64,000 nt of DNA from Bacilli bacterium. GTDB taxonomy: Bacteria; Bacillota_I; Bacilli_A; RF39; UBA660. The notes beneath the pieces were generated by a model, which was not told where the DNA came from, ran no database searches, and saw nothing but the letters and a program-made list of their open reading frames with translations. The translations under genes were made by a program, and so were the position numbers. This document shows, piece by piece, positions 11,445 through 55,764 of this stretch (its first letter is position 1; each line of letters starts with the position of its first letter). The stretch spans positions 139,013 to 203,012 of the forward strand of contig JAFQCG010000001.1 in NCBI GenBank assembly GCA_017416535.1, read 5' to 3'.

Positions 11445-12341
11445 TTATCCTCTAGGAATTATATTCATTACTTCTAAAATTCTATTTAAATCACTTGCAT
11501 TGACAAAACTAATTTCAATTTTATTATTTTTTACTTTTACTTTTGTTCCTAGTTTTTCACACATTTCATCTTGAATATATTGATATTCATTAGTTGTATT
11601 TCCTACTCTTTTTATTTTATTTGTTCTTTCATATTGATCTGTAGAATTAGTTAATGATTCTAATTGTCTTACACTTAATCCTTCTTCTACTATTTTATTT
11701 GCTAGTTCTTTTTGTTGAACATTATTATCTAATTTACTAAGTACTCTAGCATGTCCCATAGTGATTTTTCTTTCACTAATTTGTTGTTGAATATCTTCTG
11801 GAAGAGATAATAAACCAAGCATATTTGTAATATGACTTCTACTCTTTCCTAATCTCTTAGCTAATTCTTCTTGTGTTAAAGCTAATGTTTCGATTAATTT
11901 CTTATAAGCTGTCGCTTCTTCCACTGCATTTAGATTTTCTCTTTGTAGATTTTCTAATAATGCAATTTCCATCATTTCTGTATCATTAAAATCTCTAATA
12001 ATAGCTGGAATTTCTTCTAATCCTGCTAAAATTGAAGCTTTTACACGACGTTCTCCAGCAATTATTTCATATCCTTTGATACTTTTTTTAATAATTATAG
12101 GTTGGAAAACACCATGCTCTTTTATTGATGCAGCTAATTCTTGTAGTGCTGATTCATCAAATACTTTTCTTGGCTGATATGGATTGCTTCTTAATTCAGA
12201 TAATTTTACTTTTACGATTTCTTCACTTGGAGTCTCAGTAATTATTTTTTCTTCTACTTTATCATAGGCAATTGGTTCATTGAAAAATAGCTCTTCTAGA
12301 CCTCTTCCTAAAGCTCTTCTTTTTGTATTATTTGTCTCCAT
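11445..12341 (-). CDS. parB: chromosome partitioning protein ParB (Spo0J)
   Basis: RRALGRGLEELF N-terminus, ParB box GERRVKAS, HTH, conserved C-terminus. ATG 12341 chosen (RBS AAGGAAGTGA upstream). Confidence 0.85.
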   Translation of the reverse strand: METNNTKRRALGRGLEELFFNEPIAYDKVEEKIITETPSEEIVKVKLSELRSNPYQPRKVFDESALQELAASIKEHGVFQPIIIKKSIKGYEIIAGERRVKASILAGLEEIPAIIRDFNDTEMMEIALLENLQRENLNAVEEATAYKKLIETLALTQEELAKRLGKSRSHITNMLGLLSLPEDIQQQISERKITMGHARVLSKLDNNVQQKELANKIVEEGLSVRQLESLTNSTDQYERTNKIKRVGNTTNEYQYIQDEMCEKLGTKVKVKNNKIEISFVNASDLNRILEVMNIIPRG

Positions 12342-13116
12342 TTCTTGCAATCACTTCCTTTGCTAAATTGATATATGCTTCAGATCCTCTACTTTTTGGA
12401 TCGTATGCTACAATTGGTTCCCCATGTGATGGAGCTTCTGTTAATCTTACTAGTCTTGGAATTATTGTGTTATAAACTTTTTCTTTAAAGAATTTTCTAA
12501 TGTCATCAACAACTTCAAATCCTAAATTTGTTCTTGAATCAAGCATTGTTAGTAATACTCCTTCAATATCTAATGTTGGATTTAATGTTTTTTGTGCTAG
12601 CATAATTGTTTTTAATAATTGTGTAATACCTTCTAATGCAAAGAATTCACATTGTACTGGAATGATTACTGAGTTTGATGCAGTTAGTGCATTTGTTGTA
12701 ATTATTCCTAGTGAAGGAGGACAATCTAAGATAATATAGTCGAAACTATCAATTATTTCAGCTAAATGAATTTTTAATTGTTCTCCTTTTAAAAATCCAT
12801 TTTCTCTATGACTTTTTTCTACTAGTTCAATATCCAATCCCGCTAAATTAATTGTTGCTGGTAATACGTATAAATTTTTATATTTTGTTTTAATCATTGC
12901 TTCTGTAATCTTACATTCTCCTATTAAAACATCATATACGCTTTTTTCAATATCACCTTTGTTGATTCCTACACCAGTAGTTGTATTTCCTTGAGGGTCT
13001 AAATCAATTAATAATACTTTCTTCCCTAATACTGCTAATGATGCAGAAAGATTGATACTTGTAGTTGTTTTACCAACTCCACCTTTTTGATTTACTAATG
13101 ATATAACCTTTCCCAT
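12328..13116 (-). CDS. parA: chromosome partitioning ATPase ParA (Soj)
   Basis: 262 aa, deviant Walker A KGGVGKTT, LIDLDPQGN. Confidence 0.9.
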   Translation of the reverse strand: MGKVISLVNQKGGVGKTTTSINLSASLAVLGKKVLLIDLDPQGNTTTGVGINKGDIEKSVYDVLIGECKITEAMIKTKYKNLYVLPATINLAGLDIELVEKSHRENGFLKGEQLKIHLAEIIDSFDYIILDCPPSLGIITTNALTASNSVIIPVQCEFFALEGITQLLKTIMLAQKTLNPTLDIEGVLLTMLDSRTNLGFEVVDDIRKFFKEKVYNTIIPRLVRLTEAPSHGEPIVAYDPKSRGSEAYINLAKEVIARNGDK

Positions 13117-13217: not shown

Positions 13218-14567
13218 TTACTTATCTACCTTAATGATTATTTGATATGAATTATCAAAATTCATTTCATCAGCTTGTATCGAAATTCCATTTGCTTTTA
13301 ATTCTGAAATAGTGTCTCTTAACTTTTTCATTGCAGTATCAACATTATATTCTGTTTTAACTGTCATTTCTGGTATTCCCATATTTGTTGCTGCTATATT
13401 TGGAATAAAGTCTGCTGTTTTAAAATAATCTGCGGCCTTTTCTTGTGGCATTACTTTTGTAGCATCATTCTTTACAATTTCTTCTGCTGGTGTTAAGAAT
13501 GCACTTGTTCCTGGAATATTTCCTACAGATGGTCCTGCTCCTAAATTTTGTAAATTTAGTAAACTATCTAAATCTGCTGACGGCATTTTCTTTTCTTCTT
13601 TTGGTTCGCTTATATCAACAGCACTATTTCTTATAGAATTTAAATCTATTGGTGCTACTGGGTTATTAAATTGCATCGGTTCATCATCGTCGTCATCATC
13701 ATCAATTTCTCCGTAATTAATAAACTTAGATGTTTCTGATAATGTATTTGTTGAAGGTATTGTATTTATATCAACAATCGGTGGAACTGATGATGTTTCA
13801 CTAAAACTAGTTGGCTCTGTTGGTTCTTTAATATCCATCGTTGGCATAAGTGGATTTGTGTTTATAAAACTACTTGCTGGTGGTACTGAAATATCAATTG
13901 GTTTATTAATATTTTGATTTTCCATATCACTAGCACCTTCGTTCTTTTCTTCTTTTGGATATAATTGTTTTATTTCTTCCTCTACAGCTCTTACACTCAT
14001 TTTATTACTTATAATTTTCTTTAACATCTCTGTTTGTTTATTATGATCTGGTATATTTAAAAGTGCTCTTGCATGTCTTTCTGATATTTGTTCTTTTAAT
14101 AAGGAATCTTGAACATCATCTGGTAGTGATAATAATCTTAATTTATTAGCTACTGCAGATTGACTTTTTCCCATTGTTTTTGCTAAGTCTTCTTGTGTCA
14201 TTTCATCTATTTCTAGAATTTTTTGGTATGTTCTTGCTTCCTCTATTGGTGTTAAATTTTTTCTTTGTAAATTTTCTAATAAAGCTACTTTTGAACTTTC
14301 TTTATCATCTAGATCTCTTATAATTGCTGGTATTTTTGTTAAACCTGCTAAAGCTGATGCTTTATAACGTCTCTCTCCAGCTATTATTTCATACTTTCCT
14401 TTTACATTGCGGACAATAATTGGTTGAATTACACCATGTTCTTTTATAGATACAGCCAATTCTTTTAGTGCTTTTTCATCAAAAACCTCTCTTGGTTGAA
14501 ATCTGTTAGGTATTATGTCATCTAAATATAATTGGACTACTTGATCATTTGTATTTTCTGTATTCAT
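13218..14567 (-). CDS. noc: nucleoid occlusion protein Noc homolog (ParB paralog) with a long internal low-complexity insertion
   Basis: N-terminal ParB domain (IPNRFQPREVF, GERRYKAS), HTH (MTQEDLAKTMGKSQSAVANKLRLL) and C-terminus AMKKLRDTISELKANGISIQADEMNFDNSYQIIIKVDK, which aligns with the B. subtilis Noc C-terminus. Sits between rsmG and parA as in Bacillus. About 200 aa of P/S/T/D-rich sequence, including DDDDDDDE, is inserted. ATG 14567 has a GAGGGG RBS. Confidence 0.8.
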   Translation of the reverse strand: MNTENTNDQVVQLYLDDIIPNRFQPREVFDEKALKELAVSIKEHGVIQPIIVRNVKGKYEIIAGERRYKASALAGLTKIPAIIRDLDDKESSKVALLENLQRKNLTPIEEARTYQKILEIDEMTQEDLAKTMGKSQSAVANKLRLLSLPDDVQDSLLKEQISERHARALLNIPDHNKQTEMLKKIISNKMSVRAVEEEIKQLYPKEEKNEGASDMENQNINKPIDISVPPASSFINTNPLMPTMDIKEPTEPTSFSETSSVPPIVDINTIPSTNTLSETSKFINYGEIDDDDDDDEPMQFNNPVAPIDLNSIRNSAVDISEPKEEKKMPSADLDSLLNLQNLGAGPSVGNIPGTSAFLTPAEEIVKNDATKVMPQEKAADYFKTADFIPNIAATNMGIPEMTVKTEYNVDTAMKKLRDTISELKANGISIQADEMNFDNSYQIIIKVDK

Positions 14568-14640
14568 ATATTGTCCCCTCACTTTATTCTTTTTATCCTA
14601 TGTTATCATTATAGACTATTTTTTCTTTGCTTTCAATAAA

Positions 14641-20759: not shown

Positions 20760-20885
20760 ACAATATCCACAGGAATGTGGAATACTTAAATAGAGATTGT
20801 TAAAAAAAATCTGTGGAAAATGTGGAAAACTCATTTTTTCTTATATATATCAACATTTTAATAGTGGAAAAAAATGTGGAAATCT
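20760..20885. promoter_or_regulatory. oriC DnaA-box cluster upstream of dnaA
   Basis: At least 6 DnaA-box-like 9-mers (ATATCCACA, TGTGGAATA, 2x TGTGGAAAA in tandem, AGTGGAAAA, TGTGGAAAT). Each is 7-8/9 matches to TTATCCACA / TGTGGATAA. Confidence 0.75.
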
Positions 20886-22538: not shown

Positions 22539-22610
22539 TTTTCCACAGATTGAAATATGAATTTTACTTTGAAAAATAAAGGAAAAAGAGATTTTTAAAC
22601 TTTTTCCACA
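22539..22610. promoter_or_regulatory. DnaA boxes in the dnaA-dnaN intergenic part of oriC
   Basis: TTTTCCACA at 22539-22547 and 22602-22610 (8/9 matches each). Confidence 0.65.
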
Positions 22611-22648
22611 GTAATAATATAAATAATTAAAAGAAAGAAGGAATATAT

Positions 22649-23776
22649 ATGAAATTAACAATTAAAAAAGATTTATTATTAGATGCTTTAAATAAAGTAT
22701 CAAAAGCTATTTCTACAAAAAATTTAATTCCAGTTTTAGCTGGTATAAAATTTGAATTAAAGAAAAAGAAGTTAACTTTAACTGCTAGTGATAATGATAT
22801 TACTATTCAAACAACTATTAATTGTAATAGTGATGAAGATTTTACTGTTGAAAGTGAAGGAAGTATTATTATTCAAGGTAAATATGTTTTAGATATTGTT
22901 AGAAAATTACCTGATAAGTATATTAATATAGAAGTTGTTGATGAATTAAAAATTCTTATTTATACAGAAAATAGTGAATTTAATTTAAATGGTATTAGTG
23001 AAAGTGAATATCCTAATATTGGATTAGAAGAAAGTAAGAAGAAAATTGTTGTTAAAGCTGGTGTTTTTAAAAGTATTGTTAATCAAACTGCTTTTGCATC
23101 TTCAAATGAAGAAAGTAAACCTGTATTAACTGGTATTAATTTTAATATAGCTGGAGATGTTTTAGAATGTAATTCAACAGATTCTTATAGATTGGCAAGA
23201 AAAGTTGTTAAACTAGATAATGTTAGTGAGGAAAACTATAATATAGTTATACCAAGTCATAATATTGTTGAATTTTCAAGAATATTAGGTGATGATGAAG
23301 AAGATGTTGAAATCCATATATTTAGTAATAAAGTTTTATTTAAAAATGGATATTTAAAATTTGAATCTAGATTGATTAATGGAACTTATCCAAATACATC
23401 TAATTTATTACCTGATGACTCTTTCTTAGTAATTAGTACAAATTTAAGTGCTTTTTATGATGTAATTGATCGTGTTAGTATTTTAACTAGTGATAAAGAG
23501 AAGAATATAGTTACTCTTGAAACAAATGGAAATATGTTAGTTCTAAGAAGTAGCTCTGCAGAAATTGGTAGAGTTGAAGAAAAAATGCCAATATCAAAGA
23601 ATAATAATGAAGATATTAAAATTTCATTTAGTGCAAAGTACATGATGGAAGCTTTAAAAAGTTTTTCAACAGAAACTGTGGATATTCATTTTGTTGGAGA
23701 AATTAAACCAATTTTAATTAAATCAACAGAGGATGAAACTTTAACACAATTAGTTTTACCAATAAGAACATATTAA
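22649..23776 (+). CDS. dnaN: DNA polymerase III beta sliding clamp
   Basis: 375 aa, MKLTIKKDLLLDALNKVSKAIS, three-domain clamp. Confidence 0.95.
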   Translation: MKLTIKKDLLLDALNKVSKAISTKNLIPVLAGIKFELKKKKLTLTASDNDITIQTTINCNSDEDFTVESEGSIIIQGKYVLDIVRKLPDKYINIEVVDELKILIYTENSEFNLNGISESEYPNIGLEESKKKIVVKAGVFKSIVNQTAFASSNEESKPVLTGINFNIAGDVLECNSTDSYRLARKVVKLDNVSEENYNIVIPSHNIVEFSRILGDDEEDVEIHIFSNKVLFKNGYLKFESRLINGTYPNTSNLLPDDSFLVISTNLSAFYDVIDRVSILTSDKEKNIVTLETNGNMLVLRSSSAEIGRVEEKMPISKNNNEDIKISFSAKYMMEALKSFSTETVDIHFVGEIKPILIKSTEDETLTQLVLPIRTY

Positions 23777-23778
23777 AA

Positions 23779-23800
23779 AGGAGTAAAATCCTTTTTTTTT
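23779..23800 (+). terminator. weak terminator after dnaN
   Basis: AGGA-GTAAAA-TCCT followed by T9. Confidence 0.45.
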
Positions 23801-23943
23801 CACTTTTTTTGTGGAAATAAAATAAATTTCGTAATATTTTGCGAATAATTTTTATGATAGGTGTTTTTATGACATATATCGACTTAATTATTTGATAAAT
23901 TTATGTCGGAAACAAAAAAGTTTCCACAGATTGGGGGAAAAGT

Positions 23944-24390
23944 ATGAAATATGAAATAAGTAGGGGAACTTTAGCGATTGTTCCTAATGAAAAAGAAAAT
24001 AGTGTAGTATATGAGGATGAGGAAAGATATATCGTAGATGATAAGCCATTTAAAATTATGGAAGATAGTTGTAAGTATTTTGGTAGTACTTACGAAGGAA
24101 GAAAAGAAAGTGCAAAAGATATTTTAGGAGCAGAATATAAAGTTCCTATTGTTGTTGAGGATACTGAAAATTTAGTTATATTTCCAACAACTTCACCATA
24201 TTCAGATGAGTGTGTTTGGATTTCATTAAAAAGATTAAAAAAGTTCGAAAAAGTTGACTCTTTTAATACAAAAATTATATTTGACAATAATAAAGAAATA
24301 ATTGTTCCTTGCTCTTATAGAACAATAGAAAATCAAATATCTAGAGCATCGAGACTTGATTATATTTTACGCATGCGAAAAAGTAGATAA
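23944..24390 (+). CDS. comK: ComK-family competence transcription factor homolog
   Basis: 148 aa. Aligns with B. subtilis ComK over most of its length (MEDSCKYFGSTYEGRKE, VIFPTTSPYSDECVWIS, SYRTIENQ). Confidence 0.7.
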   Translation: MKYEISRGTLAIVPNEKENSVVYEDEERYIVDDKPFKIMEDSCKYFGSTYEGRKESAKDILGAEYKVPIVVEDTENLVIFPTTSPYSDECVWISLKRLKKFEKVDSFNTKIIFDNNKEIIVPCSYRTIENQISRASRLDYILRMRKSR

Positions 24391-24445
24391 AAATAAGAAA
24401 AATAGTTTTTATAACTATTTTTTTAGTGTTTTTTTTAGCTTTTTA

Positions 24446-24454
24446 TGCTATAAT
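24446..24454 (+). promoter_or_regulatory. extended -10 (TGCTATAAT) upstream of recF
   Basis: TGnTATAAT about 70 bp upstream of the recF start. Confidence 0.4.
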
Positions 24455-30659: not shown

Positions 30660-30792
30660 GAAATTGTTAATAAGTTTAATATATATATAAAAATCCACTG
30701 TTTTTGTGTATAAATTTCTTTTTCTATAATAAATTTGAATCATTTAAAACTATTTACAAAATTATATTCTTATATTAAAATATATATCGTGC

Positions 30793-30866
30793 AATGGAAG
30801 TGTTTGAACCAGGTCAGGATCGGAAGGTAGCAGCCTTAAGGACCTCCTTCCATGTGCACTTTTTTA
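30793..30866 (+). ncRNA. ffs: signal recognition particle RNA (small, 4.5S-type)
   Basis: ACCAGGUCAGGAUCGGAAGGUAGCAGCCUUAAGG nearly matches the E. coli 4.5S domain IV (ACCAGGUCAGGUCCGGAAGGAAGCAGCCAAGG). It is enclosed by a 12-bp stem (GUGCAAUGGAAG / CUUCCAUGUGCAC) and followed by a U-run. In B. subtilis scr lies next to tadA-dnaX. Confidence 0.7.
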
Positions 30867-30879
30867 TTGGAGTGATTTT

Positions 30880-34109: not shown

Positions 34110-34295
34110 ATGAAGGTTTTAGTTAAATTTATAAAAAAAGTTATACTTAGTTCATTTTTGTTATATGGATATAATCTTATTGCAGTTAATTTTAATATGA
34201 TTATTCCTATTAATTTATTTACTATTTTAAGTATGTGTATTTTAGGGATTCCATCTCTATTTGCTTTATTACTTTTTAAATTATTTATTTTGTGA
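34110..34295 (+). CDS. bofA: BofA-like small membrane protein (pro-sigma-K processing inhibitor family)
   Basis: 61 aa with two TM segments. IPINLFTILSMCILGIPSLFALLLFK aligns with B. subtilis BofA VPINLVTTAISGILGIPGIAALVVIK. Lies downstream of recR as in Bacillus. Confidence 0.6.
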   Translation: MKVLVKFIKKVILSSFLLYGYNLIAVNFNMIIPINLFTILSMCILGIPSLFALLLFKLFIL

Positions 34296-34304
34296 GGTGA
34301 TCTT

Positions 34305-43853: not shown

Positions 43854-43881
43854 AATATTTTTAGGGAAAGTGAGGAATAAT

Positions 43882-44412
43882 ATGAAGTCAACAGGTGTTG
43901 TTAGAAGAGTAGATGATTTAGGAAGAATTGTTATTCCAAAAGAAATAAGAAGAACTCTTAGAATTAGAGATGGTGAAGAGTTAGAAATATTTGTAGATGA
44001 CGAAGCTATCATTTTAAAAAAATTTTCAAATGTCGCAGATTTAGGTGATGTATCAAAAAAAATTGTTGATGTTGTAAGTTCTTTTATTGGTAAGACTGTG
44101 TTAGTTACGGATAGAGATACATTTATTACTGGAAGTGGTGAGTTAAAGAAAAAATATTTAAATAAGGAGATATCTAGTTATATTGAAGATATTATGTCTA
44201 ATCGTAATGTTGTGGTTCAGAAGAATATTGGAAATATTCAGTTGGGTGATGTTTCTGGCGAAATGTATTCTTATATTATTAATCCTATTATTAGTTTTGG
44301 TGATGTCATTGGGTCTGTTATTGTGATATCTACTAGTAGTGATATTTCTGAATTTGATGTTACTATTACTGGAATGATTACACAATTTTTAGGAAAATAT
44401 GTTGAAGATTAA
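43882..44412 (+). CDS. spoVT: stage V sporulation protein T (AbrB-N domain + GAF-like domain)
   Basis: MKSTGVVRRVDDLGRIVIPKEIRRTLRIRDGEELEIFVD nearly matches B. subtilis SpoVT. The C-terminal domain is also conserved. Lies downstream of mfd, as in Bacillus. Confidence 0.8.
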   Translation: MKSTGVVRRVDDLGRIVIPKEIRRTLRIRDGEELEIFVDDEAIILKKFSNVADLGDVSKKIVDVVSSFIGKTVLVTDRDTFITGSGELKKKYLNKEISSYIEDIMSNRNVVVQKNIGNIQLGDVSGEMYSYIINPIISFGDVIGSVIVISTSSDISEFDVTITGMITQFLGKYVED

Positions 44413-44439: not shown

Positions 44440-44705
44440 ACTTTTTAAATGTGTTGATGAAGAGTCTATAGCAAAACGTTTATTTTTAGAGACCTCGGTT
44501 AGGTGAAAGCGAGGAATAGATTAAGTTATATGATATGGCTTCTGAACTACTATATCGATATGTAGGTATAGTCGTAGATAGGCGTTAACTATTTAAGTGT
44601 ATAATATCAAATTATTATGAAATAAGGTGGTACCGCGAAAATCTTCGTCCTTATGTCGTAATAATTTTTTTTTGATATTTAATATGATTAAAGGGAGTGA
44701 TTTTG
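44440..44705 (+). promoter_or_regulatory. putative T-box riboswitch leader of metS
   Basis: AAUAAGGUGGUACCGCG at 44621-44637 matches the T-box core AAUUAGGGUGGUACCGCG. About 250 nt of structured leader precede the aminoacyl-tRNA synthetase gene. The specifier and terminator were not resolved by eye. Confidence 0.55.
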
Positions 44706-52609: not shown

Positions 52610-53380
52610 TTGTTTAAACTTGGAGATTTAGTAACTCGAATATCTCATAAGCATGATATAGTTTTTAAAATTGTTGGTTTAGATGGTAATACAGTTTTTT
52701 TAAAAGGAGTAGATCTTAGGCTTTATGCAGATAGTGATGTAAATGATTTAGTTGTTGTTAAGGAAATAGTTAATTCAGATAAGGATATAATTGATGCCAA
52801 CTTACGAGATATTAATTTAGATCGCAGTCAATATTTTTATTTACCAGGTAGAATTTTACATATTGATGGAGATAATGATTATTTAGAAAGATGTATGACT
52901 TTTTACCAAAATATGAATGTAAAGGCAAATGGAATTGCTTTACCAGAGTTTGAAATAGCAAGTAAAATCAATTCTTTATTAAATGAATATAAACCAGATA
53001 TTGTAGTTATTACTGGACATGATGCCTATTATGATAGAAAGAGAGATACCGCGGAAAAATATCAAAATACATATAATTTTATTGATGCTGTTAAACAGGC
53101 TAGAATATATGAAAAAAGTCAGGATAAATTAATAATAATTGCTGGTGCTTGTCAGTCTAATTATGAGGAACTTATTAAAGCTGGAGCTAATTTTGCATCT
53201 AGTCCTAAAAGAATTAATATACACGCACTAGATCCTGCAATTATTGCTTCTTCTTTATCGTTGTCGGATAAAAATCAAAGTATTGATGTTATTAAATTGA
53301 TAGAAAAAACGAAGTACGGAAGTGATGGAATTGGTGGAATTATAACAAATGGAACTATGTATGTGGGGTATCCTAGATGA
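52610..53380 (+). CDS. yabG: sporulation-specific protease YabG
   Basis: LGDLVTRISHKHDIVFKIVGLD, YLPGRILHIDGDNDYLERC, PDIVVITGHDAY and IIAGACQSNYEELIKAGANFASSPKRINIHALDP align with B. subtilis YabG. Confidence 0.8.
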   Translation: MFKLGDLVTRISHKHDIVFKIVGLDGNTVFLKGVDLRLYADSDVNDLVVVKEIVNSDKDIIDANLRDINLDRSQYFYLPGRILHIDGDNDYLERCMTFYQNMNVKANGIALPEFEIASKINSLLNEYKPDIVVITGHDAYYDRKRDTAEKYQNTYNFIDAVKQARIYEKSQDKLIIIAGACQSNYEELIKAGANFASSPKRINIHALDPAIIASSLSLSDKNQSIDVIKLIEKTKYGSDGIGGIITNGTMYVGYPR

Positions 53381-54850: not shown

Positions 54851-55126
54851 ATGAAAATTACATCAGTTAATGTACGTAAAATTGAAAAAGAAGGTTCTCG
54901 TATGAAGGGAATCGCATCAGTATTACTTGATGATAGCTTTGCAGTACATGATATTCGTATTATTGAGGGAGACAACGGTCTATTTATAGCAATGCCTAGC
55001 CGAAAGACTGCTACAGGTGGATATCGTGATATCGCTCATCCAATTAACCCTGAAGTTCGCGCTATGTTTGAAGAAGCAATTTTAGAAGCTTACGAAAACG
55101 CTCCTGAGGCGACAGAAGAAGAATAA
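54851..55126 (+). CDS. spoVG: septation protein SpoVG
   Basis: 91 aa, [53 protein letters not shown]. Very close to B. subtilis SpoVG. Confidence 0.9.
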
Positions 55127-55149
55127 GAAGCATAAGCTTCTTTTTTTTT
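55126..55149 (+). terminator. terminator after spoVG
   Basis: AGAAGC-ATAA-GCTTCT plus T9. Confidence 0.65.
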
Positions 55150-55189
55150 CATAAATTTTATTTGTATGCATATTCTTATGTAGGAGGAG

Positions 55190-55489
55190 ATGTGTATGGA
55201 TAAACAAGACAATACTATAAATAGCTATAATCATGGAATAAGTCTATTTGAGAGAAAAAATTTAGTAATTACAGGAGTTAAAAAAATTGAAAACTTTGAT
55301 AATACACAATTTATATTGGAGACTATAATGGGATTTATGATTATTAAAGGTTGTGACTTGGAACTTGTTAAATTAGATACTCTTCAAGGCCATGTAACAA
55401 TTAAAGGTACAATTAATTCTATTAGTTATGCTGAGGAAAGTTCTAAAAAAGAAAAGGAAGAAAGTATTTTTAGTAGATTATTTAAATAA
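55190..55489 (+). CDS. yabP: sporulation protein YabP
   Basis: ITGVKKIENFDNTQFILETIMGFMIIKGCDLELVKLD...RLFK matches the YabP family pattern ITGV..V.SFD..EFLLET..G.L.IKG. Confidence 0.75.
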   Translation: MCMDKQDNTINSYNHGISLFERKNLVITGVKKIENFDNTQFILETIMGFMIIKGCDLELVKLDTLQGHVTIKGTINSISYAEESSKKEKEESIFSRLFK

Positions 55490-55764
55490 TGAATTTATAT
55501 TTACAGATTTTTTCGTTATTGTTTTCTTTTTTTTATGGTTTGTTATTTTCTTTTTTGATTAAAATAAGTCATGTATTTTTATTTCATGTAAATACTTATA
55601 TAAAAATATGGAGTTCATTTCTTTTTATTTTAATTATGTCTTTAATTTATTTTTTCTCTTTATATGTTATTAATGGCGGAATAATTCATTTTTATTTTTT
55701 ATTAATATTTGTTTGTGGATGGTATTTAGGATATTTATTTGTTGTTAAGTTGTCAAAAAAATAG
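55489..55764 (+). CDS. yabQ: spore cortex biosynthesis protein YabQ-like small membrane protein
   Basis: 91 aa, 3 TM. Adjacent to yabP and upstream of divIC, as in the Bacillus yabP-yabQ-divIC cluster. Confidence 0.55.
   Translation: MNLYLQIFSLLFSFFYGLLFSFLIKISHVFLFHVNTYIKIWSSFLFILIMSLIYFFSLYVINGGIIHFYFLLIFVCGWYLGYLFVVKLSKK

Follow-up and report, generated by a model that had tools for sequence, protein, structure and literature searches.

The window analysed here, 64 kb of DNA with about 27% guanine-cytosine (GC) content, comes from an uncultured gut bacterium of the GTDB order RF39 and straddles the chromosomal origin of replication (oriC). The gene under study lies between dnaN and recF and encodes a 148-residue protein of the ComK family, behind a compact regulatory region that probably responds to Spo0A. 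The protein was searched against Pfam with hidden Markov models and matched PF06338 ComK at E 1.2e-44 and 152 bits (gathering threshold 22.3), over profile positions 3-151 of 152. This confirmed across the whole domain the ComK identity put forward in an earlier reading of the sequence (the original prediction). Two of its other proposals also held. The C-terminal tail is missing, as the protein ends about 35-45 residues before the long ComKs in alignment. The gene also sits in the slot held by yaaA (rlbA) in Bacillus, its flanks being dnaN and recF by Pfam, with no S4/yaaA-like open reading frame (ORF) between them in the ORF list of the window. The ComK annotation is already known: GenBank holds the identical protein as "MAG: competence protein ComK [Bacilli bacterium]" (MAG, metagenome-assembled genome).

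Thirty alignment columns were invariant across 39 homologues down to 40% identity, and C43, G52, K66, P68, I69 and P81 were invariant in short and long ComK forms alike. The window protein stops at a basic helix (...LRMRKSR), beyond which ComKs of 187-195 residues run on for 35-45 residues. Short ComKs (146-157 residues) are numerous among the representatives of clusters at 50% identity, beside long forms of 185-196 residues. An AlphaFold2 (AF2) model of the window ComK (23944-24387) had a predicted local distance difference test score of 94.7 and a beta-rich fold with a long basic helix at the end. The nearest PDB structures to this model were LytTR DNA-binding domains (AgrA, ComE), with weak similarity (E 0.014-0.3). 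A sequence search of the PDB with the 148-residue protein returned no relatives, and by sequence the PDB holds no ComK structure; NCBIfam has no model that matches the protein. With its complete ComK domain, the window protein belongs to the short class.

Relatives were collected by scanning one genome per GTDB species, which gave 368 genomes with a close ComK relative. Counts expressed below as fractions of 80 refer to the best 80 of these 368 (ComK identity 68-90%). All 80 were uncultured gut or rumen MAGs, labelled Bacilli, Tenericutes, Mycoplasma sp. CAG:877, Bacillales UBA3789 or Candidatus Faecimonas; the table of one study lists CAG-877 and UBA3789 as o__RF39 f__UBA660 (PMC10868615). 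The order dnaA-dnaN-comK-recF-gyrB was kept in 80/80 loci as far as the contigs reach. The same order was found in nine divergent metagenome loci (ComK 29-43% identity, DnaA 45-57%) and in three distant homologues picked by protein profile alone (P0347, P0349 and P0366, 41-45% identity). Against its closest relatives comK had an omega of 0.045-0.147, comparable to recF and dnaA, and the reading frame was intact in the 368 species genomes. The gene is under purifying selection. Conserved synteny and low omega show that it is neither a recent insertion nor a relic, and comK is an old, vertically inherited, functional resident of the dnaN-recF site, about 2.8 kb from oriC.

Sequences upstream of comK from the 80 loci were aligned first on the start codon and then on the best extended -10. 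The layout was fixed across loci and consisted of repeats, an extended -10, a stem-loop and a ribosome-binding site. Two or three direct 7-bp repeats TT(C/T)GACA with a 10-bp period span about -50 to -24. In the matrix anchored on the -10 the consensus of the registers is, in order, TTCTACA, TTTGACA and TTCGACA, that is, head-to-tail repeats at one helical turn. The last repeat ends 8-9 nucleotides before the TG of the extended -10 TGnTATAAT, in the 80 loci and in the distant loci. No -35 hexamer was found 17 bp upstream of the extended -10 in the window or in related loci.

At least two registers were within two mismatches of TTCGACA in 53/80 loci; a control register offset by 5 bp gave essentially no matches. 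Strict tandem repeat pairs were present in 20 of 77 dnaN-comK spacers, on the coding strand every time, as against none in the other intergenic and coding parts of the 8-kb loci and 0.01 in shuffles. Two or three perfect copies of TTCGACA are present in many species (L060, L080 and L087 among them), and triple arrays with an extended -10 were found in all three distant loci, which had been selected without any DNA motif. The repeats of the window (Table 1) occupy the registers that hold TTTGACA and TTCGACA in relatives, and the third, upstream register (23858-23864) reads TAGGTGT and contains no box. Paired AAAA-N5-TTTT motifs (K-boxes) are absent from the comK promoter, the sole copy in 23777-23943 being the dnaN terminator stem, and the conserved promoter matrix contains none. 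A further element, TTGNNAATAATATWWATRRA, stands 30-50 nucleotides upstream of the array, before or after the dnaN terminator hairpin depending on the species; it contains TGnTAATAAT and could serve either as a second promoter or as a binding site. The dnaN-comK spacer mostly measures 105-205 bp but reaches 725 bp in L032 (3276-4000) and L035, with no ORF longer than 53 residues.

The repeats are read as Spo0A boxes because, on the opposite strand, TTCGACA reads TGTCGAA, the Spo0A box (7/7). This box, with contacts at G2, C4 and G5, is common to the Spo0A proteins of B. subtilis/Bacillus and C. difficile (PMC3485338). The positions that match G2, C4 and G5 are the best conserved in the RF39 promoter matrix. 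Spo0A binds tandem boxes 3 bp apart, and the spoIIG promoter, which Spo0A activates, is marked by a TTGACA some 21-22 bp away from its -10. Head-to-tail Spo0A boxes at 10 bp and the analogy with spoIIG reportedly go back to Zhao and colleagues in 2002, to Satola and Moran, and to Spiegelman. In RF39 the second repeat is often TTGACA, at about 21 bp from the -10, which resembles the overlong spacer of spoIIG.

Public metagenomes were scanned for TTCGACA-N3-TTCGACA-N3-TTCGACA, yielding at least 120 loci. Many matches, in unrelated DNA of high GC content or eukaryote-like character, were simple tandem repeats and were disregarded. A ComK gene lay directly downstream of the triple array in at least nine metagenome loci, all of them between dnaN and recF as far as the contigs reach. 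Among the matches listed, the array was followed at about 140 bp by spo0A in L094 and L203, recognised by Pfam Spo0A_C (E 1.3e-46) and a receiver domain, and in others it preceded spoVS (L127), orphan histidine kinases (L117, L136, L199) and soj (L097). No DNA-uptake genes were found downstream of triple arrays among the sampled matches listed. L094 (array 1031-1057, spo0A 1197-1940) and L203, which has two copies of the array, are both from high-GC gut Clostridia. Triple TTCGACA arrays could serve as a signature of the Spo0A regulon in uncultured Firmicutes.

A hairpin of the form GAAA(A/G)C-loop-G(T/C)TTTC was found in the leader of about 60 of 81 loci, its stem beginning a few nucleotides after the -10. 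The inner pairs vary among species (CGA/TCG, CCA/TGG, CAA/TTG, GCC/GGC). Covariation was evaluated on a MAFFT alignment of 51 sequences with 500 shuffles. Helix cells were paired in 76.6% of cases versus 72.3% in shuffles, and the covariation score was 0.226 versus 0.148; 0/500 shuffles reached either value. With the partners slid, at most 57% were paired. Nine of the 11 pairs change on both sides. No Rfam family came near any gathering score. Three other readings were rejected: the order of the half-sites is wrong for a CodY box, the U tract of an intrinsic terminator is missing, and a loop that varies from 3 to 9 nucleotides or more argues for an RNA structure and against a protein operator. 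Since the hairpin lies at or close to the predicted 5' end, with a strong Shine-Dalgarno sequence right behind it, a post-transcriptional role is suggested; it would most likely be a 5' stabiliser of the mRNA, or else a site of post-transcriptional control. The hairpin-less loci are L014, L018, L027, L035-L037, L040, L041, L048, L052, L054, L055, L070, L073 and L075. Most of them share the leader AATTTCATGTTTAGGAGGGGGAA and a ComK starting MEYEI..., and each leader type may stand for a regulatory variant of its own.

Table 1. Coordinates of the comK unit, of the DnaA-box-like motifs and of neighbouring features in the window.
Feature	Position	Strand	Details
comK-family gene, short form, 148 residues	23944..24390	+	Pfam ComK E 1.2e-44; ATG start
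Degenerate Spo0A-box-like repeats	23868..23884	+	TATGACA 23868-23874 and ATCGACT 23878-23884; 10 bp apart, each 5/7 to TTCGACA
Extended -10 TGATAAATT	23893..23901	+	TG 23893-23894, hexamer TAAATT 23896-23901; same distance from the repeats in relatives
AT-rich element TTGCGAATAATTTTTATGATA	23839..23859	+	local version of TTGNNAATAATATWWATRRA, which is upstream of the repeat array in 47/80 loci
Stem-loop of the 5' untranslated region, GUC-GGAAAC-AAAAAA-GUUUCC-AC	23905..23927	+	RNA fold -8.0 kcal/mol, z -2.2
Ribosome-binding site GGGGGAA	23933..23939	+	5-11 nucleotides upstream of ATG; GGGGGAA/GGAGGGGG in nearly all loci
Distal DnaA-box-like motif	23810..23818	-	TGTGGAAAT on the plus strand, ATTTCCACA on the minus strand
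Proximal DnaA-box-like motif GTTTCCACA	23920..23928	+	overlaps 3' arm of leader hairpin; 24 nucleotides before start codon
13-mer TTTCCACAGATTG	23921..23933	+	exact second copy 22540-22552
AT-rich terminator-like hairpin after comK	24390..24432	+	AAAAATAGTT-TTTAT-AACTATTTTT and T run; RNA fold -9.4 kcal/mol, z -2.9
Weak AT-rich terminator-like hairpin after dnaN	23775..23800	+	AAAAGGAG-loop-TCCTTTTT and T run; RNA fold -7.2 kcal/mol, z -2.0
dnaN, DNA polymerase III beta clamp, 375 residues	22649..23776	+	Pfam DNA_pol3_beta domains 1-3
recF, 370 residues	24523..25635	+	Pfam SMC_N/AAA_23
DnaA boxes of the dnaA-dnaN spacer, TTTTCCACA	22539..22627	+	boxes at 22539-22547 and 22602-22610; the first bears the 13-mer copy; context only
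Upstream DnaA-box cluster of oriC, rpmH-dnaA spacer	20763..20883	.	ATATCCACA, TGTGGAATA, AATCTGTGGAAAATGTGGAAAA, AGTGGAAAA, TGTGGAAAT; context, outside the comK unit

The favoured explanation, rated reasonably likely as a whole, is that a monocistronic and functional short comK beside oriC, with a conserved upstream module, is transcribed in dependence on Spo0A. If the TTCGACA repeats are Spo0A boxes, comK transcription would be under phosphorylated Spo0A (Spo0A~P), which would switch the gene at the transition to stationary phase or sporulation. This would be a simpler version of the direct Spo0A control of the B. subtilis comK promoter (PcomK), a precedent for the connection, where Spo0A~P binds five 0A-box-like sites, three activating and two repressing (PMC3297582). 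The lack of a -35 suggests activation by Spo0A. The hairpin would act after transcription, most likely on the 5' end of the mRNA. In B. subtilis ComK the degron for MecA-dependent degradation by ClpCP is the C-terminus FMLYPKEERT...GERY (PMC8138137). With no such degron, control of the RF39 comK would be expected from transcription and mRNA, not from proteolysis, in keeping with its elaborate upstream region.

Sporulation genes were found in the window: bofA (34110-34300), spoVT (43870-44412) and yabG (52610-53380), then spoVG, yabP and a small ORF at 54851-55764; veg is also present. Reduced and at 27% GC, the genome has retained several sporulation-specific genes, placed much as in Bacillus. 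There is no spoIIE between divIC and tilS in the window, in agreement with the losses described for RF39 (PMC10868615). The same study predicts that RF39 sporulates, deems spo0A indispensable and does not include spo0A in its list of genes reduced or absent in RF39 (PMC10868615). From that study and the sporulation genes of the window, RF39 genomes would be expected to encode Spo0A.

Several observations weigh against this explanation. Exact TTCGACA occurs nowhere in the 64-kb window, and the two repeats upstream of comK each match it at 5/7 positions, so the argument for this species rests on position and on homology with relatives. The transcription start, near 23906-23910, is a predicted one. 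The hairpin is absent in 15/80 loci. Repression instead of activation is possible, because the repeat closest to the promoter, at about -30 to -24, falls into the gap between the usual positions of the -35 and the -10. A tblastn search with a B. subtilis Spo0A query found spo0A in two Clostridial loci only and in neither the window nor the RF39-lineage loci. None of the late competence genes comG, comE, comF, dprA and ssbB was found in about 90 kb around oriC. The sporulation capacity of RF39 is disputed, as SpoMAG gives RF39 MAGs a sporulation probability of 0% (PMC12536801), against the prediction of PMC10868615.

The original prediction had raised a possible link of comK to replication through DnaA, which might bind the comK promoter and tie competence to the initiator, with a mere spill-over of oriC boxes as its other option. 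The motifs it named, TGTGGAAAT and TTTCCACAGATTG, are present where it placed them, except that the second copy of the 13-mer begins at 22540 and not at 22541. A copy with one mismatch lies at 20807-20819 on the minus strand. The 13-mer has three matches in the window versus 0.12 expected, a number that 0/100 shuffles reached. Counting both strands, the 64 kb contain 16 copies of the 8-mer TTTCCACA, five of them in the two oriC spacers and two in the 167-bp dnaN-comK spacer, where 0.042 are expected (Poisson P(>=2) about 8e-4). By these statistics the DnaA-box-like motifs are real and commoner than chance in this genome.

DnaA bound at TGTGGAAAT (23810) and GTTTCCACA (23920) would flank the promoter, and the leader site would repress or modulate comK and tie ComK to the level of the initiator. 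In a weaker form of this explanation, read-through past the dnaN terminator would tie comK to the DnaA-autoregulated dnaA-dnaN operon; the terminator is weak (-7.2 kcal/mol), and transcription from dnaN may pass it into comK. The two 8-of-9 boxes in 167 bp, the identity of the 13-mer with its copy in the dnaA-dnaN spacer and the distance of 1.3-3 kb to oriC all favour DnaA. Comparison with relatives does not. The proximal GTTTCCACA was found in 4/80 species only, namely the window and its close relatives L009, L010 and L021. The distal box was perfect, in the same orientation and in a similar place, in 8/80 loci, and most of the 80 dnaN-comK spacers contain no DnaA box whatever. As a positive control, a perfect TTWTCCACA was found in the dnaA-dnaN spacer of 74/77 related loci; neither site near comK is a perfect TTWTCCACA. 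The GATT flank behind the identity of the 13-mer with the oriC copy is unconserved at oriC in relatives, and an extended DnaA-box consensus, TTTCCACAGATT, was dropped for that reason.

The proximal box is otherwise explained, since its GTTTCC is the 3' arm of the covarying leader hairpin. Pair 10-32 of the stem is AU in 44 sequences and GC in six, including the window. The C of this pair turns GTTTTC into GTTTCC, and with the following ACA yields GTTTCCACA; the C that creates TTTCCACA compensates an A-to-G change in the 5' arm. The close relatives L008 (TTTCCATAG) and L031 (TTTCCGCAG) retain the stem and break the box. Given the scarcity of the boxes in relatives, DnaA control of comK is no feature of the lineage. 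It is unlikely overall, and as a peculiarity of this one species it would be possible. Both motifs are best read as by-products, one of a hairpin arm and the other of a patchily occurring box beside oriC. As a point of method, a DnaA-box lookalike beside oriC was mostly an RNA stem arm, and was exposed only through comparison with relatives.

The repeats could instead be the binding sites of the short ComK itself, which would regulate its own gene, positively or negatively, with a specificity unlike the AAAA-N5-TTTT of B. subtilis. Autoregulation of ComK is known from B. subtilis (PMC3297582), and B. cereus ComK2 appears to repress its own gene (PMC3128618). The repeats always accompany comK, the promoter has no K-box pair of the B. 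subtilis type, and LytTR domains, which the AF2 model resembles, bind direct repeats; that resemblance is weak, as noted above. Set against this, the repeat is an exact Spo0A box and stays unchanged while ComK diverges to 29-45% identity. The same triple array also stands upstream of spo0A, spoVS and histidine kinases, including in high-GC Clostridia, a group not known to us to have ComK, and no DNA-uptake gene was among the array-linked genes sampled. Autoregulation through these repeats is therefore considered quite improbable.

Another response regulator, or DnaA-ATP on an array of weak sites, might read the 10-bp repeats, with the match to the Spo0A box a coincidence. Many response regulators typically have direct repeats in phase across the -35 region, Spo0A in the RF39 genome is itself deduced, and TTTTCGACA differs in a single position from the local DnaA box, TTTTCCACA. 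However, position 6 is G in 69-80% of the repeats and C in the oriC boxes of the same genomes, which makes the repeats and the oriC boxes two distinct motif classes. Many species match TGTCGAA at 7/7 three times over, and elsewhere the array goes together with spo0A. Little credence is given to this alternative. That comK no longer has a function and is decaying as a remnant of a competence system since lost, as the reduced genome, the lack of the tail needed for activation in B. subtilis and the lack of visible DNA-uptake genes in about 90 kb around oriC might suggest, is strongly disfavoured and extremely improbable in view of its low omega and intact frame, its conserved promoter, hairpin and ribosome-binding site, and a short form that is a large family and not a truncation private to this genome.

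Spo0A-dependent transcription thus remains the favoured explanation. A bolder version of it is regarded as doubtful: that this is an ancient module of the RF39 group and related Bacilli in which a ComK without degron is turned on directly by Spo0A~P and by nothing else, and in which, comK being replicated first, its copy number tracks the initiation of replication. If true, entry into the K-state, meaning DNA uptake, repair or growth arrest, would be coupled through ComK both to starvation signals and to the state of replication, and the MecA/ClpCP/ComS layer known from Bacillus would be missing. On this view the short form might even be the ancestral ComK.

What appears to be new, judged from sequence comparison, is a lineage-wide module made up of a short ComK beside oriC, phased Spo0A-type boxes and a covarying leader hairpin. 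No description of such a module was found in the searchable literature, nor any relevant account of RF39 competence or of a ComK linked to dnaN/recF. RF39 bacteria are widespread in the gut and have reduced genomes; to our knowledge no member has been cultured. The conserved comK with its Spo0A-type boxes suggests that RF39 probably keeps a working Spo0A-centred developmental switch and that a ComK programme is probably run by this switch. Should the programme consist of DNA uptake, it would matter for gut horizontal gene transfer. The locus would also offer a natural minimal form of comK control, with no degron and no K-boxes, for comparison with the layered B. subtilis circuit.

The wider window has the organisation of a replication origin. 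The sign of the GC skew flips at about 20-21 kb, and transcription diverges there, leftward from rpmH (20662) and rightward from dnaA (21142). To the left lie rpmH, rnpA, yidC, jag, trmE, gidA, gidB, parB and soj; to the right dnaA, dnaN, comK, recF, gyrB, gyrA, the signal recognition particle (SRP) RNA, tadA, dnaX, ybaB, recR and bofA. A tandem TGTGGAAAATGTGGAA pair upstream of dnaA is conserved in 62 related loci. The second box of the dnaA-dnaN spacer (22602-22610) is followed by a G and the run TAATAATATAAATAAT, which resembles DnaA-trios, directly before the dnaN ribosome-binding site. In dnaA-dnaN spacers ACTTTTTCCACAGTAATAATA is nearly invariant across 77 species, and the ACTTTTTCCACAGTAATAATA/TAATAATATAAATAAT region (22602-22627) resembles the unwinding element of Bacillus origins, a box plus trinucleotide repeats. 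Between comK and recF, TGCTATAAT at 24446-24454 resembles an extended -10 of recF's own. Left of the origin, soj is flanked by two ParB-family genes, at 13218-14582 (449 residues) and 11445-12350 (298 residues), the longer of which may be a Noc-like paralogue. The SRP RNA (30783-30868, upstream of tadA-dnaX) and a T-box leader (44445-44655, upstream of the methionyl-tRNA synthetase gene) are in ordinary, Bacillus-like positions.

Compared with known systems, the window agrees with the B. subtilis order dnaA-dnaN-yaaA(rlbA)-recF-remB-gyrB-gyrA on both sides of oriC, except that comK is in the yaaA slot and no remB lies between recF and gyrB. The sda gene and the dnaA promoter of B. subtilis are DnaA-controlled outside oriC, through clusters of good boxes at which DnaA binding has been shown experimentally. 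The RF39 locus is similar in having box-like motifs near an origin-proximal promoter, but here there are two imperfect, unconserved boxes, one of them inside an RNA stem. Spo0A-dependent promoters with tandem boxes (spo0A, spoIIG, abrB) share the TGTCGAA core, and arrays stand upstream of Clostridial spo0A; in RF39 the target would be comK, and the third box lies between the -35 and the -10.

B. cereus ComK2 is likewise a short ComK without a tail, and shows that short forms are expressed regulators (PMC3128618). It is naturally truncated, lowers comGA expression and alters more than 300 unrelated genes (PMC3128618). However, ComK2 lacks 22 residues and coexists with a full-length ComK1, whereas the RF39 protein lacks about 40 and is fixed beside oriC; no second ComK was seen in the RF39 stretch read, about 90 kb around oriC.

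B. subtilis ComK (192 residues) belongs to the same Pfam family over the whole domain. Deletion of its last 25 residues leaves DNA binding intact and abolishes activation of comGA (PMC3128618). Without the tail the RF39 protein lacks both the MecA/ClpCP degron and the region for comG activation, its promoter has no K-box pair, and its 5' untranslated region has a hairpin. Since both the tail and the AAAA-N5-TTTT pair are missing, the gene departs on two counts from a canonical competence regulator of the B. subtilis type. PcomK is bound directly by Spo0A~P, and the RF39 promoter carries candidate boxes of the 0A type; these form a regular 10-bp array over the -35 region, unlike the scattered activating and repressing sites of PcomK. 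B. subtilis comK is at a distant locus, whereas the comK of RF39 is held between dnaN and recF.

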